Shown in pieces: positions 2,660 through 25,609 of a DNA stretch of 53,683 nucleotides. Positions within the stretch are counted from its first letter, which is position 1, and every line of letters starts with the position of its first letter. The translations under genes and the position numbers were made by a program. The DNA is taken from positions 14,483 through 68,165 of the forward strand of contig CAYIFW010000001.1 in the NCBI GenBank assembly GCA_964362795.1. The letters run 5' to 3'. Under the pieces are notes generated by a model. It saw only the letters and a program-made list of their open reading frames with translations. It did not search any database and had not been told where the DNA came from. The DNA is from an uncultured Planctomycetales bacterium (GTDB lineage: Bacteria; Omnitrophota; Gorgyraeia; Gygaellales; Profunditerraquicolaceae).

Positions 2660-4060
2660 TTAAACAAATTCGTCTCTAGAGCCATTCTCCACATGTTCGA
2701 AGATTTCTTGCAAAACTTCTCTATCATTCAGATTTAACTTACGGCTTAAATTATCGATAAGCTCCTGGCCGGATCTTTTTGTTCCCAGCGAAGCAAAATC
2801 ATCCAGATATTCCTGCAAGGTAATTAAAGCGTTTAAACTGCATTTTCCTTTTATTAATCCGGGTTTAGCTAATTTCATAAAAGCCTCCCCTGTCCTTTCT
2901 TTACGGTAACAGGCAGCGCAGAAACTGGGAACAAAACCTTTTTCAATCAACGCTGCAACAATTTCATCTAAGCTTCTCTGGTCGCCAAGAGAAAACTGCG
3001 CGGAATTATCCTGGTTATTGCCGCTAGAAGAATACCCCCCGGGTGAAGTACGGGATTCCGCGCTTATCTGCGAAACTCCATAAGCTAAAAGTTCATCGCG
3101 TAAAGAAGCGCTCTCCCGGGTAGACATAATTATCCCGGTATAAGGCACCGATAACCTTAATACGGCAACTAACTTCTTAAAATCCGCATCACTTAACTGA
3201 TGCGGAACTTTTTGTGAAAACTCCGCGCCAATTGCCGGTTCAATCCGGGGTACCGAAATAGTATGTGGCCCTACCTTAAATTTATTCTCTAAATATTCAA
3301 TATGGGAAAGCATGGCCAGGGTCTCAAATTTATAATCATAAAGTCCGTAAAGAACACCAATACCAAGGTCATCTATTCCGGCAACAAAAGCCCGGTCAAT
3401 GGCATCCATTCGATTATCCGGATCGCTCTTCGGGCCACTAGGATGCACCTGAGCATAAGTTCTCTCATGATACGTTTCCTGGAAAAGCTGATAAGTCCCG
3501 ATTCCGGCGGCTTTAAGCCTCTTAAATTCTACGCTGCTTAAAGGCGCGCAATTAACATTAACCCGCTTAATTTTATTACCCTTAAAATCCGCGGCATAAA
3601 TTGCATTAATACTTTCCAAATAATAATCAATACTACTTTTCCCCTCCGGGGCGCCTTCGGAAGAAACCATAAGTATGCGCTTATGTCCGCGCTCTAGAAG
3701 CCACTGGGTTTGCTGCTTAATTTCCTCGGTAGTTAAGGCCTTGCGCTTGAGTAATTTATTATCCGACTTAAAAGCGCAATAAGCGCAGTTGTTAGAACAA
3801 AAATTATTTATATAAAGCGGGGCAAATAAAACTACGCGCCGGCCGTAAATCTGTTCTTTAACGAAACTAGCCGCGGAGAATATCTTATCCAGATTATCAG
3901 TGTCTCCAGCATTAAGCAGAATTGCTGACTCCTCCAGTGTAAGCCTGGCTAAAGATTTACTTTTATTAATAATTTTGTCAATTTGGCAACTAGCAACGTT
4001 TAAAGAATCCGCCAATAAATTATTAATTTTTTCTGGATTAACTTGCTGCATCTTAGCCAA
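2660..4060 (-). CDS. hydG: Radical SAM tyrosine lyase HydG ([FeFe]-hydrogenase H-cluster maturase type)
   Basis: 466 aa. Radical SAM motif CSNNCAYC, plus the HydG-specific C-terminal CX2CX22C motif (CAACYRKERTGEAFMKLAKPGLIKGKC) that ThiH lacks. The track start at 4060 is a TTG; the first ATG is at 4049-4051. Confidence 0.85.
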   Translation of the reverse strand: MAKMQQVNPEKINNLLADSLNVASCQIDKIINKSKSLARLTLEESAILLNAGDTDNLDKIFSAASFVKEQIYGRRVVLFAPLYINNFCSNNCAYCAFKSDNKLLKRKALTTEEIKQQTQWLLERGHKRILMVSSEGAPEGKSSIDYYLESINAIYAADFKGNKIKRVNVNCAPLSSVEFKRLKAAGIGTYQLFQETYHERTYAQVHPSGPKSDPDNRMDAIDRAFVAGIDDLGIGVLYGLYDYKFETLAMLSHIEYLENKFKVGPHTISVPRIEPAIGAEFSQKVPHQLSDADFKKLVAVLRLSVPYTGIIMSTRESASLRDELLAYGVSQISAESRTSPGGYSSSGNNQDNSAQFSLGDQRSLDEIVAALIEKGFVPSFCAACYRKERTGEAFMKLAKPGLIKGKCSLNALITLQEYLDDFASLGTKRSGQELIDNLSRKLNLNDREVLQEIFEHVENGSRDEFV

Positions 4061-4061
4061 C

Positions 4062-4703
4062 TTATCTGCCTTTGGTCTTAATTAATACATTAACAAAATA
4101 AATCAGGTTCTCTAGCTCTACCTCAAGATTTACATTATTGATTACACAGTCATCATTGCCGCGCAGCTGTAGCGGCGCAAAATTTAATATACCTTTTATT
4201 CCTGCTGAAAGCATAACCTCGGCTACCTGCTGAGCCGCTGTGGCCGGCACGGTAATAATTCCCATTTTAATATTATTTTTACGCACAAACTCCGGTAACG
4301 CGCCTAAGGGCAAGATCAGCCCTTTTTCTTTAAGTTTTAATTTTGACGTATCAATATCAAACCCGGCGACAATCTTGATCCCTTCTTTTTCAAAACCCGT
4401 ATACTGCATCAACGCACTCCCCAGCTTGCCTAAACCGACGATTACCACCTTTTGCAGCTCATCTTTACCTAAAATAGTATTGATCTTTTCAATTAACTCA
4501 TCAATCTTATAACCGCCTCTTTTATTTCCGGATATATCAAATATGGAAAAATCTTTGCGCACCTGGGATGAAGTCACTTCTACCGCGTCAGCTAAGTTAT
4601 CCGAAAAAATACGCACAAACCCCAGCGATTTTAAGTGATAAAGCGCAGCTTTATATTTGGAAAGCCGCATAATGCAAAGTTTATTTGTTTTCATATTGCT
4701 CAT
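4062..4703 (-). CDS. rex: Redox-sensing transcriptional repressor Rex
   Basis: 213 aa. N-terminal winged-helix region (RLSKYKAALYHLK...SSQVRKDFS) followed by a Rossmann fold VVIVGLGKLGSAL. The start overlaps the upstream stop as TAATG at 4701-4705. Confidence 0.9.
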   Translation of the reverse strand: MSNMKTNKLCIMRLSKYKAALYHLKSLGFVRIFSDNLADAVEVTSSQVRKDFSIFDISGNKRGGYKIDELIEKINTILGKDELQKVVIVGLGKLGSALMQYTGFEKEGIKIVAGFDIDTSKLKLKEKGLILPLGALPEFVRKNNIKMGIITVPATAAQQVAEVMLSAGIKGILNFAPLQLRGNDDCVINNVNLEVELENLIYFVNVLIKTKGR

Positions 4704-6001
4704 TATATGCTCAAATCCGTAGGTGAACGCCCTAAAGACATTAAAAGCCCGATAGTATCATTAATTTGATCTTGAATGCTCTCACTTTCATGAGCGCGCC
4801 AAGGATAAAGATTATAAAATGGCCGGTATTTAAGCGGAGTTACATTAAGCATTACCGAATTTGCTCCGCTAATCAACGCCTCGTGCCTAGCCTCAGGATC
4901 AAGCGTTTCTAAGGCGGTAGTCACCAGTATCTTAGCCTGAACAACATCAATTATACGCGCCAGGGCGATTACCTTCAGCACAGTTTCAGCTAAGGCGGAT
5001 GGATGATTAGCCAGTGGTGTTTGCGGATGGCTGATAAACGGCCCAAAACTATACATTTCAGCATGCAATTCTTTAGCTAAAAGAATATCGTTTAAAAGAT
5101 CCTCTTGGCTTTGACCCGGCAGGCCGATCAGCCCGCCGGTAATAATCAGATAGCCCAATTCATATGCTTTTTTTAAGTGAGCAATCCGGCTAGCGAGCTC
5201 TTTTCCCGGGTTAACCTGTTGATAAAGCTCCGGGTTAGATGTTTCAAACCGCAAAAGTAATCCCCGGGCACCAGCGTCATAAAGAATTTTAAGATTATCT
5301 AACCCCACTTCGCCAAAACTGATAAAAATTAGCGCCGGCCAATTTGTTTTGATCTGACGGATAATTTGGGCCCGCTCCTCTATACTATAGCCGCAATCCT
5401 GGCCGGATTGTAAAACCAAAGTTTTAAAACCATGTTCCTGGATTGCAACTTTGGCCGCCTCCAGAATTTCTTCTTGGCTCATCCGGTAACGGGTAATATT
5501 TTTATTTTCTCCGGAGATGCCGCAAAAGGAACAAGCAGAATGGCAATAATTCGAAATCTCGATTATTCCGTGCACGCAGCAGGAATTTTTATGATGCTTC
5601 TGGCGTAAGAAATTGGCAGTCTTAAAAAGAAGCTTTAAAGCCGTTTTATCTTTCTCATTAATTAAAACTAAAAGTTCCTGACGGGTGAGCTCCCGGCCCT
5701 CTACAGCCTTATCCAGTATTTTTAAAAATTCTTGGGAAACAGATCCTGGATTAAGATCAAGGCGGGAAAGCTGAAGATCAACCTCCTGAAGCTCAAAAAA
5801 AGTTTCCTTCCAGACAGCCAGAATGCTTTTAGCCTCATCCAGCGGAATCTTTTGAATAGCAAAACCGCCCTGAGCATAGATATAGTCGCCTACGGACAAC
5901 CCCTCCAACTCATTATGGGCTTTTCTCTTTTCCCCAAAATAGTCCACCACCACGGTTTTCTCTTGAATACTTTCTATTTTTCCGGGAATGGCATAGCACA
6001 T
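4703..6001 (-). CDS. Fusion protein: N-terminal HypC/HupF-family domain plus a HydE/BioB-like radical SAM domain
   Basis: 432 aa. Residues 1 to about 70 (MCYAIPGKIESIQEKTVVVDYFGEKRKAHNELEGLSVGDYIYAQGGFAIQKIPLDEAKSIL) follow the HypC pattern, including the invariant Cys2. A CX3CX2C motif (CHSACSFCG) and a TIM-barrel-like body follow. Confidence 0.75.
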   Translation of the reverse strand: MCYAIPGKIESIQEKTVVVDYFGEKRKAHNELEGLSVGDYIYAQGGFAIQKIPLDEAKSILAVWKETFFELQEVDLQLSRLDLNPGSVSQEFLKILDKAVEGRELTRQELLVLINEKDKTALKLLFKTANFLRQKHHKNSCCVHGIIEISNYCHSACSFCGISGENKNITRYRMSQEEILEAAKVAIQEHGFKTLVLQSGQDCGYSIEERAQIIRQIKTNWPALIFISFGEVGLDNLKILYDAGARGLLLRFETSNPELYQQVNPGKELASRIAHLKKAYELGYLIITGGLIGLPGQSQEDLLNDILLAKELHAEMYSFGPFISHPQTPLANHPSALAETVLKVIALARIIDVVQAKILVTTALETLDPEARHEALISGANSVMLNVTPLKYRPFYNLYPWRAHESESIQDQINDTIGLLMSLGRSPTDLSI

Positions 6002-6015: not shown

Positions 6016-6261
6016 TTAGTCACAATCAAAAGAGACCAGGCGTAAAACACGCTGCTGCGGGATATTTTTTACACAAAATTGGGCATTCTCTAACGCTGTA
6101 TTCTTGGCTTTTTCTTTAAAGAAAAACTTCAAAGACTCCGCGTTAATTTCCGTAAATTCGCCTAATTCCAAAAATACCCGCGTTACCTTCTGGGCATTTT
6201 GTTGGCCGAGGTGCTTGATAATATCTTTAAACAAATCCTCAAGAAAATGCAGCTCATGCAT
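6016..6261 (-). CDS. Short HypA-like nickel metallochaperone lacking the zinc-finger domain
   Basis: 81 aa. It starts with MHE (the HypA Ni-binding N-terminus) and aligns by eye with the HypA core (KVTRVFLELGEFTEINAESLKFFF). No CxxC...CxxC zinc motif is present. The start overlaps the protease stop as ATGCATGA. Confidence 0.6.
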   Translation of the reverse strand: MHELHFLEDLFKDIIKHLGQQNAQKVTRVFLELGEFTEINAESLKFFFKEKAKNTALENAQFCVKNIPQQRVLRLVSFDCD

Positions 6262-6742
6262 CTTTAAACTCCGCGTTAATATGTTTAATCAATACGTCGG
6301 CGGCAGACTTGACTTCACCGCTCAACCCTTCCTGTTGGGCCACGCTTTGCGGTTGAATACCGATAAAATAAATCTGGGCCTGAGTGTCTTTCTGTAAAAT
6401 ATGGCTGACCACCGGTAACGGGATACTATGCGTACTCAAAGAAGCTTCCGGAATATGCTCAGAATCAATCAAGCGTAATTCTCCGGGGAAGCCGCCAAAA
6501 TCCGCAGCATCAATAAAAATAATCCTTTGAGGCAATAGCTTTACTGCCTGATCAATAATATTCTCCGGCCTTGATCCTGCGTCAATCACCGATAATTTAG
6601 AACTTTGCTTTAACCTTAAGGCTATATACGGGCCGACACCGTCATCGGCGCGAGAATAATTACCTACCGCAATAATCAGTATGCGCAAGTATTCTTGGGA
6701 AGTTAAAAGATTTGTAAAATTAGCGTCCAACAAATTTGACAT
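6254..6742 (-). CDS. [NiFe] hydrogenase maturation endopeptidase (HycI/HoxW/FrhD family)
   Basis: Motif ILIIAVGNYSRADDGVGPYIA, with a later H in the SLSTHSIPL region. The start is uncertain: ATG at 6742, ATG at 6778, or an internal TTG. It overlaps the large-subunit stop at 6720. Confidence 0.8.
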   Translation of the reverse strand: MSNLLDANFTNLLTSQEYLRILIIAVGNYSRADDGVGPYIALRLKQSSKLSVIDAGSRPENIIDQAVKLLPQRIIFIDAADFGGFPGELRLIDSEHIPEASLSTHSIPLPVVSHILQKDTQAQIYFIGIQPQSVAQQEGLSGEVKSAADVLIKHINAEFKDA

Positions 6743-8051
6743 TAAGGAAATGCGCGGAGCAGGAAATACACGGATCATAAGCGCGCACCAGCATCTCCAT
6801 CAAAAGAGTGATTTCTTCTTGGCTCTTATCCAGAATCTGGGGAACTAATGCGGCCATATCCAGTTCAATATTGCTTAAATTTTGCCCGGTAGGAATAATA
6901 CAATTAGCATTAATGATTTTACCTCGATCATCAATTTCATAGTTATGAAATAAAATTCCGCGGGGAACTTCCACCGCGCCAACGCCATTACCGGCGCGAA
7001 GAGCAATTGTGCCCTTTTCGTTAAGGCCAACGACGATCTCCTGGGAATAATCAACGCCTTTATCTTTAAGGTCTTCTAAAATCTCAATCGACTCTTCAAG
7101 GGAATGCACGCACTCAATCAACTGCGCCACGGTATTTAAATAAGGATTAGTCACAACCGGCTTCATCCCCAACGCCTGAGCTGCTTCTTTAGCTTTGGGA
7201 TGGAGCTTGTCATGATTAAGATTAAACCGCGCCAGCGCCCCAACCATATAAGACTGACGGCTAGCTTTAGTGTGCTTGGCACTGGAATGGCTAACCACAA
7301 ATTCATTAGTTAACTTAAGGTAATCTTTTTTATCCAGGCGCAATCCATCAGTTGAGCCTAAATCTCCGGAGAGCATCGGATATTCGCTCTGATCACTAAC
7401 TAAGCCTACATACTCGGTTGGACGGCTAAATTGCGGAAATTTAAAAGTTTTAGCTAACTCTAAAGTCTCCTGCATATCCCGACGCATATTGATCAAAATA
7501 TCCAGCATACGGTCTAGGTCTTTTTGGCGCGGCAGCTTAGTAAATCCTCCGACGATACAAGATATCGGATGCACGTGACGGCCGACCAGGATATCGCAAA
7601 CATCATTACATTCCTTTTTCATCCGCAAAGCCCGCCGCACAACCGTATTATGCGACTGAATCAAAGGAACAAAACTCTTGACCCCCAAAAGATCCGGAGC
7701 AATCAATAAATAGATATGTAAAATATGGCTATCTAGATTCTCCAGATGCAAAAGAAATTTACGCAACTTAATGGTTTGCTCGGAAGGAATAAAACCTAAA
7801 GCATCCTCGGCGGCTTGTATTGAAGCCAGGGTATGTCCGCAGGCGCATATACCGCAGATGCGGGAAGTAATATGCTGCGCCTCAAAGATGGAGCGGCCGC
7901 GTAACATCCCTTCGAAGAACCGCGGGCTCTCAACGATATCCAGGCGGCACTCCTGGAGCTTCCCGTCTTTAACATTGACCACAATATTACCGTGACCCTC
8001 TACGCGGGTCAAATATTCGACATTAACCTTTATGTTTTTGCTCATCGACAT
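6720..8051 (-). CDS. [NiFe] hydrogenase large (alpha) subunit, cytoplasmic group 3b type
   Basis: 443 aa. N-terminal RICGICACGH and C-terminal DPCISCSAH, followed by a 9-residue tail (FLNVKFVGR) that fits endopeptidase processing. TRVEGHG lies near the N-terminus. Confidence 0.9.
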   Translation of the reverse strand: MSMSKNIKVNVEYLTRVEGHGNIVVNVKDGKLQECRLDIVESPRFFEGMLRGRSIFEAQHITSRICGICACGHTLASIQAAEDALGFIPSEQTIKLRKFLLHLENLDSHILHIYLLIAPDLLGVKSFVPLIQSHNTVVRRALRMKKECNDVCDILVGRHVHPISCIVGGFTKLPRQKDLDRMLDILINMRRDMQETLELAKTFKFPQFSRPTEYVGLVSDQSEYPMLSGDLGSTDGLRLDKKDYLKLTNEFVVSHSSAKHTKASRQSYMVGALARFNLNHDKLHPKAKEAAQALGMKPVVTNPYLNTVAQLIECVHSLEESIEILEDLKDKGVDYSQEIVVGLNEKGTIALRAGNGVGAVEVPRGILFHNYEIDDRGKIINANCIIPTGQNLSNIELDMAALVPQILDKSQEEITLLMEMLVRAYDPCISCSAHFLNVKFVGR

Positions 8052-8784
8052 CCAGCTCCCGTGGCTTATTATACATATTCATTTTATTAGCAACCCAATC
8101 CAGAGAAATATTATATTTTTTTAAAATATCCGCTTGTCCGTTTTTTGCCGGATTACTCACCATCCCGCGGCAGCCATAACAAATATTGCCGTTATTAATA
8201 CACCAGGAATTACATCCGGCGCGGGTTACCGGGCCCAGGCAGCTGATCCCCTTATCATACATACAGACATTTTCATTAAAACGGCACTCCGTGCAAACCG
8301 CATAATCCGGCACAATATAAGCCAGGCCGGCTAAAGCGCACTTAAGCACCTTGACAAGTTCCGGTTGATAAACCGGACAACCGTGCACGAAATAATCAAC
8401 CTTAACTATTTGATGCAAAGGTTGCGTGGGTAGCGTTGAAAAATGTTTGGCATCATCTTTATAAACGTATTTCTTGATATCTTCCAGGTCAAAGTTGTTT
8501 TTCATCCCGTTGATTCCGCCGATAGTAGCGCAGGATCCATAAGCAATCAAAACTTTGGCTATCCCGCGAATTTTCTTAATTCTTTCTAGATCATGAGCGG
8601 TGGTAATGCTGCCTTCCACAATCGCTACGTCATAAACATCGCTTTTCTCGCTCATTACCTCCCGGAACATTACTACATCAATTGCGCCAAGGATATCCAA
8701 AAGCGCCTCTCCGAAATTCGCCACCTGTAACTGGCATCCTTCGCAACAAGAAAAATCAAAAAACGCAACCTTAGGTTTACTCAT
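8023..8784 (-). CDS. [NiFe] hydrogenase small (delta) subunit, NuoB-like
   Basis: 253 aa. N-terminal FFDFSCCEGCQ, GSCA and a Cys-rich distal part (CTEC...C, CNSWC...CYGC). Start/stop overlap TAATG at 8782-8786. Confidence 0.88.
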   Translation of the reverse strand: MSKPKVAFFDFSCCEGCQLQVANFGEALLDILGAIDVVMFREVMSEKSDVYDVAIVEGSITTAHDLERIKKIRGIAKVLIAYGSCATIGGINGMKNNFDLEDIKKYVYKDDAKHFSTLPTQPLHQIVKVDYFVHGCPVYQPELVKVLKCALAGLAYIVPDYAVCTECRFNENVCMYDKGISCLGPVTRAGCNSWCINNGNICYGCRGMVSNPAKNGQADILKKYNISLDWVANKMNMYNKPRELDVDEQKHKG

Positions 8785-9620
8785 TATAATGCCTCTGGAT
8801 TAGCTTTAATTTGATCATAAGAAAATACCGGGCCGTCTTTACAGCAATAATACTGGGCGATCTGGCAATGCCCGCACTTTCCAATACCGCACTTCATATG
8901 CCTCTCTAAAGAAACATAGATCTGATTCTCCGGAATCTCTTTTTTAAGAATTTCCACCAACACAAATTTATACATAATCGGAGGCCCCACAACTATCGCA
9001 AAAGTCTTCTTAGGATGCAGATCTATCCCGGGAATAAGCGAAGTAATCAGGCCGATATTGCCTTGCCAATCGGGATCAGCTTTATCAACCGTGCAGGAGA
9101 AGTTAACATCCATCCGCTCCTCCCAATTTTTAATCTCATCGGCAAAAAGAAAATCTTCCGGTTTCTTACAGCCAAGCAGGATGTGCGCTTTACCAAAATC
9201 CCGGCGGTTATCAATTACAAAATTAATCAGCGAACGTAAAGGAACGATTCCCAATCCTCCGGCAACAAAAAGCAAGTCATTTCCTTCTAAAACCTGCACC
9301 GGGAATCCTCTTCCAAAAGGGCCGCGAATCCCTAAAACATCTCCTGCCTTTAACTGATGCAAAGCATTGGTCACTCTACCGACATTACGCACCACTAACT
9401 CAAAATAACTGCGCTTAGTCGGCGAAGAAGATACGGATATCGGCGCTTCTCCGATACCCAAGAGAGATACCATCACAAATTGCCCCGGCTCATGGTCAAG
9501 GCTAAAACCACCATCCAGAGAAATCTTAAAATATTTCTCGTTAGCCGTCATCAGGCGCGCCTCAATGATTTTGGCCGGCATCACGATATATTCGGATTCT
9601 TTTAATTCAATACTTTTCAC
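8784..9620 (-). CDS. Hydrogenase gamma subunit, FAD/NAD(P)-binding oxidoreductase with 2Fe-2S (AsrB/PyrK-like)
   Basis: 278 aa. GGLGIVP nucleotide fold and C-terminal CGIGKCGHCQ...CCKDGPVF. GTG start at 9618-9620 overlaps the beta-subunit TGA (GTGA). Confidence 0.85.
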   Translation of the reverse strand: MKSIELKESEYIVMPAKIIEARLMTANEKYFKISLDGGFSLDHEPGQFVMVSLLGIGEAPISVSSSPTKRSYFELVVRNVGRVTNALHQLKAGDVLGIRGPFGRGFPVQVLEGNDLLFVAGGLGIVPLRSLINFVIDNRRDFGKAHILLGCKKPEDFLFADEIKNWEERMDVNFSCTVDKADPDWQGNIGLITSLIPGIDLHPKKTFAIVVGPPIMYKFVLVEILKKEIPENQIYVSLERHMKCGIGKCGHCQIAQYYCCKDGPVFSYDQIKANPEAL

Positions 9621-10653
9621 TTTATTTCCCTAGCTAGATCATTAATCGTTTCTTTAAGCGAAATATCCGCCATACAGGTACGCGAACATCTACCGCATCC
9701 TGTACAAAAATAACGGCTGTATTTATCCACCGGATACCTGAATTTACGCAAATAACGATGGCGCTGGCGCTGCCCGCGTTCTTGACGAAAGTTCTCGTTA
9801 CCGGCCACCTTAGCAAATGGCTCGCTCTGGCAGGAATCCCAACGGCGATAACGCAGGCCGCTGTTTAAATCAAGATTAGACTCATCAATAATATCAAAAC
9901 AATAACAAGTCGGACAGACATTGGTGCAATTCCCGCAAGCCAAACATCGCTTATCCAGCTCATCCCAGACTTTACTATGAAGCGCATGGCGGTTAAAAAG
10001 CTGCTTAATAGCGGGGTGGCGAACATTAACTTCGTTTTTAAAAATTTCCTGTTTTTAGCGCGCAATAACTCCAGAGATTTCAACGTTTGATCATCCGCTG
10101 CCTTAAGAACACCCGCCTTATCTACCAACTCATCTCCCAACATAGTGTTGATGTGCACGACAAAAGTATCTCCTAAATCAGTAAAAAACAAATCATATCC
10201 TCCGTTAGGAAGATGGTTATTTACAACATGACAAGAAGCATATTCATCGCAGTACTCATTACACTCCAAACCAATGATGGCAATCTTATTTTTGCGCACA
10301 ATATAATTAATATCTTTAGGTTTATCCGAAAAAACCATATTCAGGCATTGAATCCCGGCTAAATCACAGGTATGCACGCCGAAAATAACCATCTTTTCAT
10401 ATTCTAAAACAGCATTCAGCGAATTTTTCCCCTTATCATAAGCAGCTAAAGTTTCACCGGTAGGAAGAAAATATTTTTTTGGCGGTAGAATGGTGGGAAT
10501 ATACCTGATGGCGATATCTTTAGCGCTGGTAACATTCTGAAAAGAAAAGTTTTTATAACCCAGGCTAACTGGCGCGACAACCTTTTGCGTTTGCGCTAAA
10601 GAGCTAATAAACGCATCAAGATTTTCTTTTTTTAATACGGCGAATTGCTTCAT
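9617..10653 (-). pseudogene. Hydrogenase beta subunit (AsrA-like Fe-S protein) interrupted by a 1-nt frameshift. It is either a true pseudogene or a homopolymer sequencing error.
   Basis: ORFs 9865-10653 and 9617-9943 overlap in different frames. The 1037-nt span is not a multiple of 3. The frames meet at the T5 run 10052-10056 (coding strand GCT AAA AAC AGG). One extra A gives ...LELLRAKKQEIFKNEVNVRHPAIKQLFNRHALHSKVWDELDKRCLACGNCTNVCPTCYCF..., a continuous protein of about 345 aa. Confidence 0.8.
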
Positions 10654-10703: not shown

Positions 10704-10721
10704 TTGTGAATAATATCACAA
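10704..10721. promoter_or_regulatory. Rex operator
   Basis: TTGTGAATAATATCACAA matches 13 of the 14 defined positions of the Rex consensus TTGTGAAnnnnTTCACAA. It sits 51-68 nt upstream of the hydrogenase operon start codon and overlaps the predicted -10. Confidence 0.7.
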
Positions 10722-12310: not shown

Positions 12311-13084
12311 TTACTGAGAGTAACTATGCAGGCCGGAAAACAAATAGCTGACCCCAAAATAGGTAAAAAGCATCGCCAGAAAACCTATCACCGACAACCA
12401 AGCTGCTTTTTTCCCTCTCCACCCCTTTCTTAGGCGAGCATGCAAATATATAGCATAAATAAACCAAGTAATTAATGACCAGGTTTCCTTAGGGTCCCAG
12501 CTCCAATAAGTGCCCCAGGCGGAATTGGCCCAGACCGATCCACTAATAATGCCTAAAGTTAAGAATAAGAAACCCAGGGCAATTAACTTATGACTAATAT
12601 TATCTAAATTCTGACTCGCCTCTTTTTTAAATAAAATAATCAAGCTGGCAACAAAAGCCACGGTTAAAGCGGCGTAGCCGATAAAACAGGTTAATACATG
12701 AAAGGTCAGCCAATTGCTTCTTAGGGCGGGCATCAGCGGAGCAATCTCTTTATCTAATAACGCAGCGTATCCTAAGGCCAATAAACCCATTAAAGCCGTT
12801 AGAGCATTAATCACCTTAATCTTATATTTTAAATCCATGAAAATAATAAAAACAGCAATCGCCCAGGCAAATACGACTAAGGACTCAAACATATTGCTTA
12901 GCGGAGGCCGCAGGGCAGCCTGCCAGCGAATGCCGATATGAATCGAAAGCCCCAGAGCCGCACAAATGATAAAAAATCTCGCCAGAATCGAAAATATTTT
13001 ATTTTTAAAAAACAGGCTTCCCGCGTAGAAAATCATGGACGCAAAATAAACTCCGAAACTAAAATTAAGATACGCTACAGACAT
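12311..13084 (-). CDS. ccsA: Cytochrome c biogenesis System II haem-handling protein CcsA/ResC
   Basis: 257 aa membrane protein with the WWD-type motif WGTYWSWDPKETW and flanking histidines. Confidence 0.9.
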   Translation of the reverse strand: MSVAYLNFSFGVYFASMIFYAGSLFFKNKIFSILARFFIICAALGLSIHIGIRWQAALRPPLSNMFESLVVFAWAIAVFIIFMDLKYKIKVINALTALMGLLALGYAALLDKEIAPLMPALRSNWLTFHVLTCFIGYAALTVAFVASLIILFKKEASQNLDNISHKLIALGFLFLTLGIISGSVWANSAWGTYWSWDPKETWSLITWFIYAIYLHARLRKGWRGKKAAWLSVIGFLAMLFTYFGVSYLFSGLHSYSQ

Positions 13085-13088
13085 AGTT

Positions 13089-14123
13089 TCACCCTTTCAG
13101 CGTTAGCGGGCCGACATAAAATATCATTACCAGTCCTACAATCAACAAAATAAATCCCGCATAAATCACCGGCACTCCCGGATCCCTAACAACCTGCAGC
13201 CCGGTCCAACTAAGATTCTGGCTGTCATAACCTGATTGAAAAAAATTATAACCTGCAAAATTAAGCGGCGCGTTCACCTGAATATCCCGGTTTAATACTT
13301 CTTGGTTATCTTTTAAGATGGTAACTTTACTGATAAAATCTTTAGGCCGGCGCGGCGCCCAGTTATATCTAATCTGAAAATCCGTACTTATCCCTTGGTG
13401 GATATCCGGGAAACGCGCAAAGATCCAGGCATTTTTAGCCTTCCCTTGAGGATCGATCAATTCCACCTCTAAAGCCGGATTATTCGGCTCAGCCGACCGG
13501 CTTAAAACCTCTTTAGTCGAAGTGTCCATCACAAAATCCGCGACATAGCGCAGAACTTTAATCTTATAACCGGTATCAGCAATCTCTTGCGGGCTACCCG
13601 GATTAACGGAAATTTTAGCTAAGAGACCCTTTGCGTTTTCCGCTTTTTTTGCAAAATCAATATTACAAACATCTTTTTCTGATCTTTCCCCTGAATATAC
13701 CAGTAATTTCTCTTTCACATCGATATTTTCGTTATAAATAAAATCATTTAACCTGATCGAAAACCCCAGAGGGATATTCTTACCGCGATAGATAAAAGAA
13801 TTTATCGCCTGGCCTTTGCGAATTATTACGTAATCTTTCTGGGCAAAAAGTATTCCGATGAGCGCTCCCAGTAATATAATTAAAATACTGCTATGCGCCA
13901 AAGAAGATCCCAACGAACGATTTTTCAAGGAAAATTTGTTTATAAGGCATACCATAAGATTTAAAGAAAATAAAACCAGCAAAAGAATGAACCACCAGGA
14001 AGAATAAATACCGCTTTGGGCAATAAAAGTGCCGATTAAAGAAAAAAACGCGATTACCGCAAGCAGCCAGATCGCCAGCTTTACCGAAGCAAAAAATTTC
14101 CAGATTTTAGTTTGTTTAAACAT
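13089..14123 (-). CDS. ccsB: Cytochrome c biogenesis System II protein CcsB/ResB
   Basis: 344 aa. N-terminal TM helices, a large soluble loop and a C-terminal TM helix. It lies immediately upstream of ccsA. Confidence 0.8.
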   Translation of the reverse strand: MFKQTKIWKFFASVKLAIWLLAVIAFFSLIGTFIAQSGIYSSWWFILLLVLFSLNLMVCLINKFSLKNRSLGSSLAHSSILIILLGALIGILFAQKDYVIIRKGQAINSFIYRGKNIPLGFSIRLNDFIYNENIDVKEKLLVYSGERSEKDVCNIDFAKKAENAKGLLAKISVNPGSPQEIADTGYKIKVLRYVADFVMDTSTKEVLSRSAEPNNPALEVELIDPQGKAKNAWIFARFPDIHQGISTDFQIRYNWAPRRPKDFISKVTILKDNQEVLNRDIQVNAPLNFAGYNFFQSGYDSQNLSWTGLQVVRDPGVPVIYAGFILLIVGLVMIFYVGPLTLKG

Positions 14124-14139
14124 GCTCTTTTTTAGGAAT

Positions 14140-14168
14140 GGTTGGCCCCGGCAAACCCGGGGCTAACC
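14140..14168 (-). other. GC-rich intercistronic hairpin between the tetrahaem cytochrome gene and ccsB
   Basis: ggttggccccgg (14140-14151) pairs with ccggggctaacc (14157-14168). The stem is 12 bp with one G:T position and the loop is 5 nt. No U-tract follows on the minus-strand transcript. Confidence 0.5.
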
Positions 14169-14180
14169 ATAATAGTTTTA

Positions 14181-14711
14181 TTATTTTGCTGCAGGGTGAG
14201 TAATCCTAGGGTAATATTCTTTGAAATTAAACCCTTTAAAATTCGGGCTTTCGGCATTATGGCATTTAACGCACATCGCCTCCGCCGGATCAGTCAGGCC
14301 TAATTCTATTGATTTGGCCTTATCCTTCATCACGCTTATCGGTAAATAATCACCGCCGGCGCCATGGCAACTTTCACACTGCACACCATCCTCTTTGGAA
14401 AAACCTTCCCCTAATAAACTGCTATCCACTCCGTAAGCAGTCTGATGACATTTCAAACAAGCAGCGGCCTCTTGAGGATTGCCGGAAACGCCGGCTTTCT
14501 TGGCCGCTTCTTGAGCTTCAGGAGTTGCCAGCGTTACATAAGCCTTAGCATGCTTGGTCGAAAGCCACTTGCCATACTGATTACCTTTTGACTCGGATTT
14601 ATGGCACATCACGCATCTTTTAATTCCTACATATTCATGATCGGCAGCCAACGCAGCTTTAGTTACTCCTAAGACCAGAACCACCCCTATTAATATTATA
14701 TTCCGTTTCAT
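14181..14711 (-). CDS. Periplasmic tetrahaem cytochrome c
   Basis: Four CxxCH motifs (CVMCH, CLKCH, CESCH, CVKCH). Signal peptide MKRNIILIGVVLVLGVTKAALA. I chose the ATG at 14709-14711 because GGAGG (14718-14722) precedes it by 6 nt; the track ORF extends to 14744. Confidence 0.85.
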   Translation of the reverse strand: MKRNIILIGVVLVLGVTKAALAADHEYVGIKRCVMCHKSESKGNQYGKWLSTKHAKAYVTLATPEAQEAAKKAGVSGNPQEAAACLKCHQTAYGVDSSLLGEGFSKEDGVQCESCHGAGGDYLPISVMKDKAKSIELGLTDPAEAMCVKCHNAESPNFKGFNFKEYYPRITHPAAK

Positions 14712-14730
14712 CTTTATCCTCCCGCCGTTT

Positions 14731-15522
14731 TTAATTATGCTCAATAGTATGATGACAATCCCTGCAATCAGCTTTATTCCCTAAAATATGCGCTTTATGC
14801 ATAAGCAGAGCTTCGGGGATTTTCCCTAAATCCTTTTTATCCGCATGGCAATAAAAACAAAGTTGCTTAAGCACTTCACCATTGCCTGATTTGGCCGTGT
14901 CATGACAAGAAAGGCAAGTTGCATTCGGCTCCTGTAAATATTCCTTATGCGTAGCGGATTCTTTAATTGTTTTATGGCAATTTAAGCATTGCTTTATCAA
15001 CTGCTCGCCTTCAACGTTTTTAAAATGGCAGGTAAAGCAAGTGTTTTTATCTATAGAAATATGCTCTTCGTTAGTCAGCTGTTTATGGCAATTATTACAG
15101 TTAAGCGCAATACCTGCCTTGGAAGCAGCAAAATGCTTGGCATGAACAAAATCAACCTTGCCTTTAAAAATCACTTTTTTCGCGCTAACCGCTTCTCGGG
15201 TATGGCAACCCTGCCTTAAACAAGTCAAATCACTCACCGAAGCCTTAGGCTTTACCGCGTATTTTCCGGTCAAATATTTACCCACTTCGATTAACCCGTT
15301 TATTTTTCCAAAGACATGCGCTTTTAACCCCGGCTCATAATGGCATTCAATGCATTTTTCTTTATTATGGGCTGATTTCTTCCAGGAATCATAATAAGGC
15401 TTCATATTATGGCAAGCCAAACAGAACTCCGGCCGCTCGGTATAAACAATCAACGCCGCAGAGCCTAAAATAAATAAAAAAACCAGAAGAACCAAAATAA
15501 GAATTATTTTTATTTTTTTCAT
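14731..15522 (-). CDS. Membrane-anchored multihaem cytochrome c, NapC/NirT/NrfH-type N-terminus
   Basis: 263 aa. N-terminal TM helix, then eight CxxCH motifs (CLACH, CIECH, CNNCH, CFTCH, CLNCH, CLSCH, CFYCH, CRDCH) plus one CX4CH (CLRQGCH). Confidence 0.85.
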   Translation of the reverse strand: MKKIKIILILVLLVFLFILGSAALIVYTERPEFCLACHNMKPYYDSWKKSAHNKEKCIECHYEPGLKAHVFGKINGLIEVGKYLTGKYAVKPKASVSDLTCLRQGCHTREAVSAKKVIFKGKVDFVHAKHFAASKAGIALNCNNCHKQLTNEEHISIDKNTCFTCHFKNVEGEQLIKQCLNCHKTIKESATHKEYLQEPNATCLSCHDTAKSGNGEVLKQLCFYCHADKKDLGKIPEALLMHKAHILGNKADCRDCHHTIEHN

Positions 15523-16832
15523 CTTCCCAATTCCCCTAAAGCCCGCTGGGCTGCCTTTAAAGTATTTCTAATATTTGCCTGAGTATGTTTGGCGGAAACA
15601 AAATTAGCCTCGAACTGCGAAGGAGCCAGATAAACTCCCTGCTTTAGCATCTTCCGGAAAAAACCGGCAAACCTCTCTAAATCACATCCACAAACATCAA
15701 TGTAATTTTTAAGCGTTTTTTGATCTGTAAAGAATAAAGTAAATAAAGAACCTGCCCTTTGAACTGTCGCCTGAATCCTCTCTTTACGGATAACTTCTTT
15801 TAACCCCAGCTCAAGCTCTAAGCTTAACTTATCCAAATTATCATAAATTTTATTTTTTATCAATAGCTTAATTGTCGCGATCCCGGCCGCTGTGGCCACG
15901 GGATTGCCGGATAATGTCCCGGCCTGATACACCGGCCCATCCGGAGAAAGAAAATCCATGATCTCCTGCTTTCCACCGAAAGCGCCAATCGGAAAACCTC
16001 CGCCTAAGATCTTGCCTAATACTGTCAGATCAGGCTTAATTCCCAAGAACTCTTGGGCTCCGCCTAAAGCAACGCGAAAACCGGTAATTACTTCATCAAA
16101 AATTAAAACAATATTATTTTCCCGCGTAATCTCCCTTAAGGCTTCTAAGAAGCCACTTTGCGGCAGGATAACTCCCATATTTGCCGGGATAGGCTCGACA
16201 ATCACACAAGCAATATTGCCCTTATGCTGCTTGATTGCTTCTTTGAATTTATCAATATTATTAAACGGCAGGCTAAGCGTATCTTGGGCAAAACTTTTAT
16301 TTACCCCTGCTGATGAAGGCACTCCAAAAGTAGCCGATCCTGAACCCGCTTCAACCAGAAGGCTATCGGCATGCCCGTGATAACAACCCTGAAATTTTAT
16401 TATTTTCTCTTTACCCGTATAACCGCGGGCCAGGCGTAATGCTGACATCGCCGCTTCAGTCCCGGAAGAAGTAAGCCGGACTTTTTGGATCGAAGGATAA
16501 ATTTTACGGATTAATTGAGCCAGCTCAATTTCATTCGGAGTGGGAGCGCCGAAACTTGTGCCTTTTTCAACAGCCCGTTTAACCGCTTTAATCACAGCCT
16601 GGTCAGCATGGCCTAAGATCATCGGCCCCCAGGAGAGCAGATAATCCAGATATTTATTATTATCCACGTCGTAGATATAGGCGCCTTTGGCTTTTTTGAT
16701 AAACAGCGGCTCCATCCCTACGGCTTTAAAAGCGCGTACCGGGCTGTTGACCCCTCCGGGGATAAACTTTTTCGCTAAGCTAAAACAGGCTTTTGATTTT
16801 CTAACGATTGGATTTTTCATAAGTAAATTCAA
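15519..16832 (-). CDS. hemL: Glutamate-1-semialdehyde 2,1-aminomutase
   Basis: 437 aa. GGVNSPVRAF, DEVITGFR, LGKILGGGFP and AGTLSGNP motifs. Confidence 0.95.
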   Translation of the reverse strand: MNLLMKNPIVRKSKACFSLAKKFIPGGVNSPVRAFKAVGMEPLFIKKAKGAYIYDVDNNKYLDYLLSWGPMILGHADQAVIKAVKRAVEKGTSFGAPTPNEIELAQLIRKIYPSIQKVRLTSSGTEAAMSALRLARGYTGKEKIIKFQGCYHGHADSLLVEAGSGSATFGVPSSAGVNKSFAQDTLSLPFNNIDKFKEAIKQHKGNIACVIVEPIPANMGVILPQSGFLEALREITRENNIVLIFDEVITGFRVALGGAQEFLGIKPDLTVLGKILGGGFPIGAFGGKQEIMDFLSPDGPVYQAGTLSGNPVATAAGIATIKLLIKNKIYDNLDKLSLELELGLKEVIRKERIQATVQRAGSLFTLFFTDQKTLKNYIDVCGCDLERFAGFFRKMLKQGVYLAPSQFEANFVSAKHTQANIRNTLKAAQRALGELGR

Positions 16833-17290
16833 TACCTCACCGCGGTTTTTTTATATTCTTGCGAAGAAAAAAGCACCTGATAATCTTGACAATTTATTTT
16901 CCCGGAAATCTCCCTGACCAAGCCCAGGCAATCTTTTTTTAACCGGCCGTGAATCATAGAATAAAGATTATAATTCCATCCGTCGGCCTTTTCTCTCTGG
17001 TAACAGTGGCTTACTTGCCCAAAGGAAGCAACTATTCTGCCTGCTTGAGCAATCAACTTATCCGAAATGTTCCAGACCGCCATGGCATTATACCTAAAAC
17101 CTATCTTCCGATGATTAAGACTGGCGCAAAATTTACGTAAAAGATTTTTATTTTTATAGAATTTCAGGCGTTTCAGCAGAATCTCTTGTTTTATACCAAG
17201 TTTAAGGGATAAATCTTTAAACGGTTCTTTAACCAGCGGGATATCCTGTGAAATCAAGCTGATTATATCTTTATCAAGCTTAGAGAGCAT
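16829..17290 (-). CDS. Siroheme decarboxylase subunit (AhbA/AhbB, Lrp/AsnC-like NirD/H family)
   Basis: 153 aa, paired with the neighbouring paralogue. N-terminal HTH-like LDKDIISLISQDIPLVKEPF. The haem-cluster context supports the call. I cannot tell A from B. Confidence 0.7.
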   Translation of the reverse strand: MLSKLDKDIISLISQDIPLVKEPFKDLSLKLGIKQEILLKRLKFYKNKNLLRKFCASLNHRKIGFRYNAMAVWNISDKLIAQAGRIVASFGQVSHCYQREKADGWNYNLYSMIHGRLKKDCLGLVREISGKINCQDYQVLFSSQEYKKTAVRY

Positions 17291-17292
17291 TT

Positions 17293-17778
17293 TTATAGGC
17301 CTTTTAGCGGAAATTTTACGTTAATCTTAAAGATCCTGGTTGCCGGAAACTGGGATATTTTTTTAATATTCTTGTCCTGCTTAATCCGGGAAATAATTTG
17401 GTTAATCCTCTGAACATCCCGGGCAATTAAAGTAAACCAAAGGTTGTATTCGGCGTCTCGCCTATAGTTGTGCGTAACTTCGGGGTATAAATTTATTCTT
17501 TTAGCCACTTTTTCAATACATTGGGGCGCGATCTTCGCGGCAACTAATGTTGAGATAAAATTAATCTTACCTGGAGAAAAAATCGCGCTTATCCGGCGAA
17601 TTATGCCTTGTTTCTTTAAAAAAGCAATCCTTTTTAAAAGATAATCTTCTTTGATATTTAATTTGGCAGAGGCAACTTTCCAGGGCCTGGCAACAAAGGC
17701 AATATCCTCCTGCAGGCAACCTAAGATACGCTTATCCAGTAAGCTTAATTTACTTTTTACCGGGCGGCTGATAGGCAC
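17293..17778 (-). CDS. Siroheme decarboxylase subunit (AhbA/AhbB family)
   Basis: 161 aa paralogue of 16829-17290 (LDKRILGCLQEDIAFVARPW). Confidence 0.7.
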   Translation of the reverse strand: MPISRPVKSKLSLLDKRILGCLQEDIAFVARPWKVASAKLNIKEDYLLKRIAFLKKQGIIRRISAIFSPGKINFISTLVAAKIAPQCIEKVAKRINLYPEVTHNYRRDAEYNLWFTLIARDVQRINQIISRIKQDKNIKKISQFPATRIFKINVKFPLKGL

Positions 17779-18784
17779 AATACGGCTCCTCGGCTAAATA
17801 ATTATTGGCTACGGCATTGGCTCTGGCGCGGCATCCGGAGCAAATCGCCCTGAATTCACAGATGCCGCACTTGCCTTGATATTTAGAAAAATCCCTTAAA
17901 TTATTAAACACTTCTGATTCCAGCCAGCTTGACTTAAACCCCTGCTTCCTGATGTTGCCGCATTTTAAATCTAAATACCCGCACGGCTGCAAATCTCCGG
18001 TATGCGAAATAAAACAGAAACTTACTCCGGCCATACAGCCTCTGCCGGTTAAAGTTGCAGCCGGCTCTAAATGCTCCTGGGCTAAAATACGGTTAAGATG
18101 CGGAGCGCAGGTGATCTTAATCTCTAAAGAAGATCTATTTTTTTCCTGAGCCAAAAATTTAAGTGTCTTTTCATATTCTTGCGCTGATAGTTCCTCGCCC
18201 AGCATATCTTTAGCCCGGCCCGTAGGCACCAGCAAAAAAATATGCTGCGCTTTAGCGCCCAACTTTTCGGCTAATTCCATAATTTGAGGAACTAATTCCA
18301 GATTGCCCCTGGTAATCGTGGAATTTATCTGAAACTCCAGGCCGGCTTTTTTTGCCCTGGCAATTCCCGCGCAAGCCCGCTGAAACGCTCCGGGAACCTG
18401 CCTAAGGCTATCGTGAGTGGCCTCATCCGGGCCGTCTAAACTTATAGAAATTCTTTTTATACCCGACTGTAGAATTTTTGTAACCAATTCATCGGTCAAC
18501 AATGTGCCATTAGTAGCCATGACCATTCTTAAACCTTTTTTATTCCCGTATTCGGCAATCTGAAAAATATCTTTCCGTAATAATGGCTCTCCTCCGGTCA
18601 AAATTATAACCGGCTTGCTAAAAGACACAATTTCATCGATTAATTTAAAACATTCCTCGGTAGCCAACTCATTGGCATACGAACCGCAAATACTCGAGGC
18701 CCGGCAATGCAAGCAAGCTAAATTACAGCTGCGGGTAACTTCCCAGGCGATCATTCTTAAATTTTCTTTTTGTTTTTCAACCAT
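17750..18784 (-). CDS. ahbD: Radical SAM/SPASM enzyme of the alternative haem pathway (AhbD-like haem synthase; the C versus D assignment is tentative)
   Basis: 344 aa. CNLACLHC radical SAM motif and a C-terminal Cys-rich SPASM-like region (CGICEFRAICSGC). Confidence 0.65.
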   Translation of the reverse strand: MVEKQKENLRMIAWEVTRSCNLACLHCRASSICGSYANELATEECFKLIDEIVSFSKPVIILTGGEPLLRKDIFQIAEYGNKKGLRMVMATNGTLLTDELVTKILQSGIKRISISLDGPDEATHDSLRQVPGAFQRACAGIARAKKAGLEFQINSTITRGNLELVPQIMELAEKLGAKAQHIFLLVPTGRAKDMLGEELSAQEYEKTLKFLAQEKNRSSLEIKITCAPHLNRILAQEHLEPAATLTGRGCMAGVSFCFISHTGDLQPCGYLDLKCGNIRKQGFKSSWLESEVFNNLRDFSKYQGKCGICEFRAICSGCRARANAVANNYLAEEPYCAYQPPGKK

Positions 18785-19731
18785 TTTGCCAATTCTTGAG
18801 CATAATAAGTAATAATTAAATCCGCTCCGGCGCGTTTAAACCCGGTGAGAGTTTCCCAGACTGCCTTTTTCTCATCAAAACACCCTTTAAGGCCGGCAGC
18901 TTTAAACATCGCGTATTCACCGCTCACCGAATAACAAGCCAGCGGAAATTTTAATTCCTTTTTAATCCTGTAAATTATATCCTGATAACCTAATGCCGGT
19001 TTGACCATCAGCATATCCGCGCCTTCTTGAATATCCAGTCTAGCCTCCAGCACTGCCTCAGCGGAATTATAATAATCCATCTGATAAGTTTTTCGGTCGC
19101 CGAATTTAGGAGCTGATTCGGCCGCCTCCCTAAAAGGGCCATAAAAACTAGAGGCGTATTTTGCTGAATAAGCTAAGATCTTTACTTTCCCATAATTATT
19201 TTTAATTAGAGCTTTTTTTATTTCCCTAACCTGGCCGTCCATCATCGCGCTCGGAGCAACCGTATCTGCGCCGGCCTGGGCATAGGAAAGGGCAATCTTA
19301 GCTAATACCTTGATCGTCTGGCCATTATCAACCTGAGAATTTCGGATAATTCCGCAATGGCCATGGCTGGTATATTCGCACATACAAACATCAGCAATTA
19401 TTTTTAAACCGGGCACCGCCTGCTTAATCCGGCGAATAGCTTGCTGAATTATTCCTCCAGGCTCATAAGCCGAAGCACCGCTATTATCTTTATGCAAAGG
19501 TATACCGAACAAAATTACCGCTGGTATTTTTAAATTATAGATTTTACGCGCCTCTCTAACAGCTTCTGAAAGAGAAAGCTGATAAATACCCGGCATGCTC
19601 TTGATTTCTTTCTTTTTAGAGATTCCCTCTTTGATAAAAAGAGGCATAACCAGGTCAGCACAAGTTAATTCTTTGGTTTGGCGGTATCTGGCGCGGGTTG
19701 CTGCGTTTTTCCTGCTTAAGCGCAAATTCAT
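18757..19731 (-). CDS. hemB: Porphobilinogen synthase (delta-aminolevulinate dehydratase), Zn type
   Basis: 324 aa. Zn-binding CMCEYTSHGHCG and the Schiff-base lysine context MVKPALGY. Confidence 0.95.
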   Translation of the reverse strand: MNLRLSRKNAATRARYRQTKELTCADLVMPLFIKEGISKKKEIKSMPGIYQLSLSEAVREARKIYNLKIPAVILFGIPLHKDNSGASAYEPGGIIQQAIRRIKQAVPGLKIIADVCMCEYTSHGHCGIIRNSQVDNGQTIKVLAKIALSYAQAGADTVAPSAMMDGQVREIKKALIKNNYGKVKILAYSAKYASSFYGPFREAAESAPKFGDRKTYQMDYYNSAEAVLEARLDIQEGADMLMVKPALGYQDIIYRIKKELKFPLACYSVSGEYAMFKAAGLKGCFDEKKAVWETLTGFKRAGADLIITYYAQELAKWLKNKKKI

Positions 19732-19738
19732 ATTTTTT

Positions 19739-20974: not shown

Positions 20975-20975
20975 A

Positions 20976-23629: not shown

Positions 23630-23632
23630 AGT

Positions 23633-25580: not shown

Positions 25581-25609
25581 TATTATTTCTCCGACAATAT
25601 TGAATTATT

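Follow-up and report, generated by a model that had tools for sequence, protein, structure and literature searches.

The question raised by this 53.7-kb stretch of Omnitrophota DNA (hereafter the window, by which the whole of the analysed sequence is meant) is what a maturase of the [FeFe]-hydrogenase type, HydG, is doing within an operon that is headed by the genes of a [NiFe] hydrogenase. The gene lies at 2660–4060 on the reverse strand and is the tenth in a closely spaced operon of 12 genes, which runs on that strand from 10653 down to 405, the largest gap being no more than 15 nucleotides (nt). The order is that of the beta, gamma, small and large subunits of a 3b-like [NiFe] enzyme, the endopeptidase HycI, a shortened HypA (mini-HypA), a fusion of HypC to a HydE-like radical S-adenosylmethionine (radical-SAM) domain, the repressor Rex, HydG, NfnA and NfnB. 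In a preliminary description of the locus two options were offered, namely that the gene serves an [FeFe] enzyme encoded elsewhere and is simply co-regulated through Rex, or that it takes part, with the HypC fusion, in the maturation of the neighbouring [NiFe] enzyme. To this the present analysis adds a Rex operator at the operon promoter and raises the standing of the second option, the choice between the two not being settled. The most economical reading of the synteny, tree, fusion and Hyp data is that HydG and the fusion are a functional pair in a minimal [NiFe] maturation module, to which a probability of about 0.45 may be given; that HydG feeds the fusion, such that Fe–CO/CN is supplied to the [NiFe] enzyme, would be held with the same, somewhat less than even, expectation.

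By every sequence criterion applied, the 466-residue product of the open reading frame (ORF) is a genuine HydG, of the family of radical-SAM tyrosine lyases and Fe(CO)2(CN) synthon synthases. It scores 492.6 bits against TIGR03955, the NCBIfam equivalog for HydG (cut-off 312.15), and 291.7 bits against the ThiH family, which is under the cut-off of 380 for that family. The radical-SAM motif CX3CX2C is present as C88-x3-C92-x2-C95, and the C-terminal auxiliary-cluster motif CX2CX22C, which occurs in HydG and not in ThiH, as C381-x2-C384-x22-C407, exactly as the preliminary description had it. The latter motif aligns with its counterpart in the solved HydG structures 4wcx and 4rtb, both of which align with the protein over its full length (E = 1.5e-136 for 4wcx); loss of the auxiliary-cluster ligands on careful alignment had been named beforehand as a ground for rejecting the reading of the preliminary description, and all of the ligands are in fact kept. 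The ligand of the dangler iron, which we take to be His265 of T. italicus HydG (4wcx) on the assumption of a one-residue offset in numbering, has its equivalent in H253, which is aligned with the His of the LYH motif in 4wcx. H253, along with C88, C92 and C95, is invariant in 37 of 37 related HydGs, and the cluster ligands are likewise kept in all 37 with the exception of C384, which is altered to a C-x5-C variant in a separate clade. The window HydG is, then, predicted to be an orthodox enzyme that builds the Fe(CO)2(CN)(Cys) unit on its C-terminal cluster. As to the variant clade, its members are of ca 498 residues and have FCTAGYRCGRTGxC...C in place of CX2CX22C, the second Cys being at C-x5-C spacing; they are found both in HydE/HydF-linked and in fusion-linked genes (loci L034, L038, L044, L052, L060, L068, L070, L071, L076, L078 and L080).

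The gene is closely embedded between its neighbours. The rex stop codon (4062–4064) and the TTG start of HydG at 4060 leave a gap of 1 nt, and a further gap of 1 nt separates the HydG stop (2660–2662) from the NfnA start at 2658 which agrees with the homologues (M24 of the long ORF). The single-nucleotide spacings of the preliminary description hold for these starts; since homologues of HydG are of 462–463 residues and their alignment begins at residue 4, however, it may be the ATG at 4051 that starts translation, with a gap of 10 nt to rex. The nearest HydGs, which make up at least 100 clusters among the matches listed, are 63–80% identical and are annotated as coming from metagenome-assembled genomes (MAGs) of Candidatus Omnitrophota. 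The canonical HydGs of Omnitrophota, which lie in hydA-TM1266-hydG-hydE-hydF operons, are 66% identical to that of the window.

No partner of the canonical kind was found close by. No H-cluster motif occurs in the six frames of the 53.7 kb, no match was returned when the window was searched by tblastn with Omnitrophota HydF, the HydA H-domain and TM1266, and the only match there to canonical HydE was the fusion itself, at 36% identity. The earlier statement that neither an [FeFe] hydrogenase nor HydF is nearby can thus be extended, on six-frame motif, tblastn and Pfam evidence, to the whole window. In the Pfam annotation of the larger genes of the window no HypB, HypD, HypE or HypF was found either.

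The candidate partner is the 432-residue fusion at 4703–6001 on the reverse strand. Its residues 1–67 match PF01455 (53.6 bits, cut-off 28.5) and the solved HypC structures 2z1c and 3vyr, its score against the HypC family TIGR00074 is 42 bits, under the cut-off of 48, and its MCYAIPG start, including Cys2, is invariant in fusions (n = 30). The conserved histidine of HypC, which we take to be His51 in E. coli, is replaced by Gln44, a residue that stands opposite the His of HypC from T. kodakarensis and S. oneidensis in the alignment and is invariant in the 30 fusions. Residues 94–427 are 38–39% identical to HydE of T. maritima (TmHydE), and the score of the fusion against the HydE equivalog TIGR03956, 242.6 bits, falls below the cut-off of 254.6. 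An AlphaFold model of the fusion (predicted local distance difference test, pLDDT, 89; predicted template-modelling score, pTM, 0.89) gives as its best Foldseek matches TmHydE, including the forms with bound complex B, at a root-mean-square deviation of 1.5 Å, such that a HydE fold is predicted. The radical-SAM cysteines C153, C157 and C160 (CX3CX2C) are invariant, and equivalents of M224, M291, V105 and L157 of TmHydE are retained, M316 and M384 (for M224 and M291) being invariant in the 30 fusions. In TmHydE, M224 and M291 are reported to hold the Fe(I)(CO)2(CN)S intermediates and V105 and L157 to line the cavity, and the sole known substrate of HydE is the product of HydG (PMC11826987). One residue is changed, in that K309, the proposed radical-relay lysine of HydE, gives way in fusions to an invariant Arg402; the six canonical HydEs compared all have Lys. 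Just ahead of the radical-SAM motif there is an extra CC pair (C141 and C142), invariant in fusions and absent from the parent families.

The HydE-like domain of the fusion is 34–39% identical to any canonical HydE, canonical HydEs being 45–59% identical among themselves. In genomes with the full hydrogenase island described below, the fusion and a canonical HydE coexist. This makes the fusion no stand-in for HydE and, as judged from sequence, a separate HydE paralogue, probably with a job of its own, tied to [NiFe] enzymes. The fusion makes up at least 120 clusters of 61–100% identity and 431–451 residues, with PF01455 and PF04055, and, among the matches listed, those with an organism name are Omnitrophota or simply ‘bacterium’. 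A profile scan of JGI metagenomes gave 348 relatives, of which the best 80 of 348 cover almost the whole of the 432 residues. No description of a HypC–HydE fusion, or of HydG or HydE in [NiFe] maturation, was found in searches of full-text literature.

The association of HydG with the fusion is not peculiar to the window. For the synteny survey, ORFs were called in the window and in 81 related loci (given here as L numbers) and labelled against reference proteins; the fusion was called in 76 loci. Where 3 kb or more of sequence precedes it, which is so in 49 loci, it follows a [NiFe] large subunit in 44, and its partners are two 3b-like lineages, the large subunits of which are 76–91% and 55–57% identical to that of the window, together with Mbh/Mrp-type group 4 enzymes. 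HydG stands with the fusion, usually one or two genes past it, and without HydE, HydF, HydA or TM1266 in 34 of the 76 loci, 14 of these reaching at least 4 kb past HydG; a further 11 of the 76 hold [FeFe] genes or HydE/HydF. The string HycI-HypA-fusion-Rex-HydG is also found behind group 4 enzymes (L052, L070 and L071). The gene order of L007 (JAHIKK010000105.1), which was the sole locus returned by a HydG protein search of genome contigs, is identical to that of the window, and L093 (GCA_002796135.1, contig PCWB01000006.1) has the string of the window minus rex, with the HypA-like gene upstream; contigs identical to that of the window come from Hainich groundwater. The arrangement, in other words, recurs in other species (L007 and L091–L093 among them) and in dozens of metagenomic loci, and is not the product of chance. 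The preliminary description had named hydA, hydF and a second hydE elsewhere, combined with absence of the arrangement from relatives, as grounds for rejecting its reading; the second half of this test fails, the arrangement being widespread. The lists of HydG, fusion and HydF matches separate canonical from fusion-linked contigs, among the matches listed, which is no proof of absence, and a comparison of six HydG with 20 HydF accessions gave no pair from one genome.

Maturases of the Hyp pathway were looked for in the same loci. The motifs of HypD (GPGCPVC) and HypE (C-terminal PRIC) are absent from the ORFs of the window and the 81 related loci, and a Pfam scan of 30 neighbour clusters gave no match to a Hyp family. 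In one Omnitrophota genome table of PMC10066038, a single MAG case, a hydrogenase protease, an [FeFe] hydrogenase and HydE, HydF and HydG are entered and no HypA–E TIGRFAMs are, and two other Omnitrophota genomes in that source list HypB–E, or HypA and HypC–F. The [NiFe] option is raised on three counts: HydG stands beside the fusion in 34 loci without hydE, hydF or hydA, the same module lies behind 3b-like and group 4 [NiFe] enzymes, and HypD and HypE are missing near the 81 searched fusion-related loci.

Were HydG and the fusion to work as a pair, a single Rex-repressed promoter would give rise to a 3b-like [NiFe] hydrogenase along with a minimal maturation set of HycI, mini-HypA, the fusion and HydG, the last being kept because the fusion needs its product. 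HydG would pass its Fe–CO/CN synthon to the HydE-like domain, which would remove the cysteine by radical chemistry, and a mononuclear Fe–CO/CN fragment would then move to Cys2 of the fused HypC domain. The HypC domain would in turn hand the fragment to the [NiFe] large subunit, after which mini-HypA would add Ni and HycI would cut the tail. Such a route would replace or bypass HypD, HypE and HypF, and where a genome has the full island both classes of hydrogenase would depend on one and the same HydG. What is observed is the identity of the genes, their motifs, the layout of the operon, the Rex box and the conservation of synteny; each biochemical step of this scheme, as well as a genome-wide loss of [FeFe] genes, is conjectural. 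Slightly more tentative is the broader claim that many Omnitrophota mature their [NiFe] hydrogenases through a radical-SAM route borrowed from the [FeFe] system, in which HydG makes the CO and CN ligands from tyrosine, the fusion processes the iron carbonyl–cyanide unit and brings it to the large subunit, and HypD, HypE and HypF are dispensable or absent.

Several considerations weigh against a pairing of HydG with the fusion in [NiFe] maturation. Chemically, the HydG synthon carries two CO and one CN, while the [NiFe] site has one CO and two CN. HydG is missing from 31 of the 76 fusion loci, of which seven have at least 4 kb of downstream sequence, and the fusion-linked HydG is the same orthologue as the canonical one, with no sign of a specialised paralogue. 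Nor is there tight co-evolution: the identities of fusion and HydG to those of the window are incongruent (81% and 67%, respectively, in L009, and 66% and 76% in L016 and L030), which indicates that modules recombine freely and that the island, judged from such comparisons, is a recombination mosaic. The window itself carries NuoE-like and NuoF-like genes, such as are known as partners of [FeFe] hydrogenases. The genes hydE, hydF and hydG are scattered through many other bacteria and, to our knowledge, every [NiFe] maturation system described uses HypC, HypD, HypE and HypF. Moreover, [FeFe] hydrogenases are common in Omnitrophota according to PMC10066038, a point which, together with the orthology of the HydGs, keeps the more mundane of the two options alive. 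A side observation on the same mosaic is that the large-subunit identity classes (86–91%, 76–81% and 55–57%) do not track fusion similarity (L007–L085).

In a neighbour-joining tree the fusion-linked and canonical HydGs are interleaved, L013 for example lying beside L005, and this rules out the fusion-linked HydG as a distinct paralogue. Such a pattern fits one HydG serving whichever partners are present, and is neither for nor against a [NiFe] role.

The alternative that survives best is that HydG matures only one or more [FeFe] hydrogenases encoded elsewhere, in concert with HydE and HydF also encoded elsewhere, its position being what is left of a rearranged Rex-controlled island; the fusion would then use HypD, HypE and HypF from elsewhere, and its HydE-like domain would be unrelated to HydG. 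This is a serious possibility, although one that is doubtful on balance. Its strength lies in the full island, which is seen on a 312-kb contig (L090 and L088). In order along the contig there are GS-III and ExbBD, then a HypA-like gene ahead of the genes of the [NiFe] 3b enzyme, and then HycI, the fusion and Rex. After Rex come a sensor kinase, a hydrogenase of the form NuoF~GltD/HydA2/HydC, a pair of response regulators, HydC-x-HydB-HydA and TM1266, and after these HydG, HydE, HydF, NfnA, NfnB, GDH, x642, HD and CarA. In other words, two [FeFe] hydrogenases stand between Rex and HydG, and HydE-HydF after HydG, directly downstream of the [NiFe] operon and the fusion. The same is seen in eight further loci (L011, L019, L023, L024, L027, L072, L038 and L044), and the island of some relatives holds, besides the fusion, hydA, hydF and a second hydE of the canonical kind. 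The canonical loci L004 and L005 have the order HydC-x-HydB-HydA-TM1266-HydG-HydE-HydF, with NfnAB next in L005.

Against this background the window and L091–L093 have the downstream flank of the full island (NfnAB, x639, HD and CarA) without any of the genes between Rex or the fusion and HydG, and without HydE-HydF. The window looks like the full island minus all [FeFe] parts except HydG, and its flanks point to deletions around HydG. Because the island is contiguous in relatives, history is enough to account for HydG being a neighbour of the [NiFe] operon, and what has to be explained is that HydG alone was kept. The probable history is that hydG sits here because an Omnitrophota island joins the [NiFe]-fusion operon, Rex, the [FeFe] genes, HydG-HydE-HydF and NfnAB, and that the present lineage has this island minus the [FeFe] structural genes, TM1266, HydE and HydF. 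That HydG serves only [FeFe] enzymes elsewhere would also agree with its 66% identity to, and interleaving in the tree with, canonical Omnitrophota HydGs, with the reshuffling of modules among lineages, with the frequency of [FeFe] group A3 enzymes in the phylum, and with the regulation of hydG by Rex in Caldicellulosiruptor bescii, as PMC6391272 indicates. It needs, however, the pair hydE-hydF and hydA to have moved off repeatedly while hydG alone stayed, from a canonical order of hydG-hydE-hydF, and it leaves unexplained both the HydG behind the fusion at group 4 enzymes and the joining of HypC to a HydE-type domain with kept Fe(CO)2(CN)-binding residues. Moreover, in some near-complete Omnitrophota MAGs, those of Ace Lake, 85–95% complete, group 3b is the sole identifiable hydrogenase (PMC8542988). 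That these MAGs carry the fusion and HydG would be a tentative link: in large-subunit length (1329 nt) and GC (40%) the loci L039–L042, L084 and L085 agree with Ca. Aadella, but none of the contig identifiers matched.

A second alternative accepts that HydG and the fusion cooperate but gives them a different product from the standard NiFe(CN)2CO centre, the fusion being either a HydF-independent carrier to an [FeFe] or unknown enzyme, or a supplier to a 3b-like enzyme with non-standard ligands. In this regard, the fusion does depart from both of its parents (HypC His51 to Gln, HydE K309 to Arg, and the invariant CC of C141 and C142) and lies under the equivalog cut-offs of both HypC and HydE, and the ligand count of the HydG synthon is mismatched to the [NiFe] site. 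This alternative is nevertheless unlikely, since the L1 and L2 cysteine motifs of the large subunit are ordinary, its tail is cleavable and its neighbours include HycI and HypA, and since the fusion is tied to [NiFe] large subunits rather than to HydA. That HydG no longer has a function and is decaying, as the beta-subunit frameshift in the window and the disappearance of the [FeFe] genes from the island might suggest, is very improbable, given that the protein is full length with all catalytic residues present, is translationally coupled to its neighbours and is 63–80% identical in at least 100 clusters with the same position in different species, and that a second contig from this population does not have the frameshift.

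The module may be set beside several known systems. With the HydE/HydF/HydG system (TIGR03955; 4wcx, 4rtb) the window HydG has in common full-length homology, both cluster motifs and the dangler-iron His, and it differs in being without HydE, HydF, TM1266 or HydA as neighbours and in lying in a [NiFe] operon, two genes past the fusion. With HydE (TIGR03956; T. maritima 3ciw, 7o1o and 8qmk) the C-terminal 340 residues of the fusion share the predicted fold, CX3CX2C and the equivalents of M224, M291, V105 and L157, whereas the fusion is just under the equivalog cut-off, has Arg for K309 and an extra CC pair, and is joined to HypC. The N-terminus, in turn, resembles HypC/HybG/HupF in its MC..PG start with Cys2, and the gene comes just after those of the large subunit, protease and HypA; it is unlike them in its Gln for His, its radical-SAM partner domain and the failure to find HypD, HypE or HypF near the searched loci. 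The source of the CO ligand of the [NiFe] site in anaerobes is a long-standing open question. HypX, the aerobic [NiFe] CO-ligand synthase, is alike in being an accessory enzyme that supplies a diatomic ligand, but it belongs to an unrelated protein family, supplies CO only, works with HypCDEF and explains the aerobic source of CO only (PMC6802093). Archaeal hybrid [FeFe]/[NiFe] clusters also link the two classes and show mismatches of hydrogenase and maturase, yet what they combine are the structural subunits, and most of them have no HydEFG, whereas the window has an [FeFe]-type maturase with a [NiFe] enzyme (PMC11216029).

HydG, then, is an enzyme of a known kind, and the conserved module around it is a new variant which may be a new pathway. 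With HydG and the HypC–HydE fusion inside [NiFe] operons, and HypD and HypE not seen there, the provision of tyrosine-derived CO and CN by radical-SAM chemistry becomes a testable alternative. If true, the Fe(CN)2CO moiety would have a second, independent biosynthetic origin and its CO ligand a defined source in anaerobes, the two main classes of hydrogenase would be connected in their maturation, and there would be a four-gene maturation set (HycI, mini-HypA, fusion and HydG) for heterologous production. If false, the locus is still a compact Rex-controlled hydrogenase island, and hydG alone would be a poor marker of [FeFe] metabolism in metagenomes.

The regulation of the operon can be read from its upstream region. 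The best promoter-like site on the reverse strand, TTGACA-16-TG-TATTAT at 10737–10710, lies ca 50 nt upstream of the first gene, and a perfect Rex operator, TTGTGAATAATATCACAA, at 10704–10721 on that strand overlaps its −10 element; with up to two mismatches allowed, this is the sole match in the window to the operator consensus TTGTGAnnnnnnTCACAA, and it has none. At the other end, a terminator-like hairpin with a 13-bp stem and a T-run follows NfnB at 298–265. The tight packing together with the perfect Rex box at the promoter makes co-transcription and Rex control well supported predictions. The preliminary description is borne out in both respects, in that the gaps of 15 nt or less, the best promoter-like site and the hairpin put HydG inside the operon headed by the [NiFe] genes, and the operator at the promoter argues for Rex co-regulation of hydG.

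All of the genes of the operon are on the reverse strand. The [NiFe] beta subunit (Fer4_22, AsrA-like) is at 9617–10653, the gamma subunit (FAD/NAD-binding and 2Fe-2S; sulfhydrogenase gamma or AsrB-like) at 8784–9620, the small (delta) subunit (Oxidored_q6) at 8023–8784 and the large subunit at 6720–8051. The last has the ordinary RxCGxCxxxH and DPCxxCxxH motifs, with the L1 and L2 CxxC, in the form of RICGICACGH and DPCISCSAH, and a nine-residue C-terminal tail for proteolytic maturation. The top family matches of the subunits are sulfhydrogenase subunits, at scores under the Pyrococcus-specific cut-offs of those families, and the probable assignment of the enzyme as 3b-like rests on the beta/gamma/small/large architecture and the large-subunit motifs. 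There follow the HycI-type maturation endopeptidase (6254–6778) and the 81-residue mini-HypA (6016–6261), which keeps the nickel-binding MHE N-terminus and lacks the zinc-finger domain, its length being 80–81 residues in 32 related loci. Beyond the fusion come the redox-sensing repressor Rex (4062–4703) and, after HydG, the NfnA/SudB-like FAD/NAD-binding subunit (1813–2658, with the start taken at M24 of the long ORF) and the NfnB/GltD-like subunit (405–1808).

The beta-subunit gene is split in the window, where, in comparison with L001, an A-run near 10,055 is one nucleotide short and some mismatches are grouped close by; the gene is intact (344–345 residues) in L001, which is from the same population, and in L007. 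Either the assembly is in error at this point or the strain carries a pseudogene. A second group of loci has, instead of mini-HypA, a weak HypA-like gene of 87–98 residues upstream of the beta subunit. The large subunit was called as one 603-residue protein fused to HycI (NiFeSe_Hases and HycI) in L091 (6881–8692) and L092 (4265–6076), loci which are relatives of GCA_002796135.1. In L084 and L085, CbiM/CbiN-type genes (Ni/Co uptake) come right after fusion-HydG, and in L075, L077 and L078 a gene of the aspartate-ammonia-lyase family (Lyase_1) stands ahead of HydF, in agreement with the involvement of ammonia-lyases in synthesis of the H-cluster bridge, as given in PMC11736057.

Beyond the operon, the larger genes of the window are assigned by Pfam to cytochrome c biogenesis, alternative haem synthesis, Rnf, GOGAT, GS-III, Amt and ExbBD. 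A cluster at 29639–36163 on the reverse strand holds a NuoE-like gene (with an extra N-terminal Fer2), an unknown gene of 127 residues, a NuoF-like gene, DRTGG, CBS/HATPase, an unknown gene of 120 residues, PHP, HATPase and a 214-residue protein with one 2Fe-2S and two [4Fe-4S] sites, the end of which is overlapped by a UbiA gene. Bifurcating and sensory [FeFe] hydrogenases have surroundings that are similar to this cluster, in which, however, the H-cluster domain is absent. The 214-residue Fer2_4/4Fe-4S protein (29639–30283) was considered as a truncated remnant of HydA and rejected, as it is just 34% identical to HydA N-termini and looks like a HoxU-like protein in its own right. Between the hydrogenase operon and the Rnf cluster there sits a run (12311–26681) of ResB, CcsA, multihaem cytochromes and genes of sirohaem-dependent alternative haem synthesis, the last comprising NirDL-like regulators, AhbC/D-like radical-SAM proteins and HemA, HemB, HemC, HemD and HemL. 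In the relatives L007, L021 and L090 the [NiFe] operon, or the transporter gene adjacent to it, has ExbBD immediately upstream, so that ca 28 kb may have been inserted or rearranged in the window.

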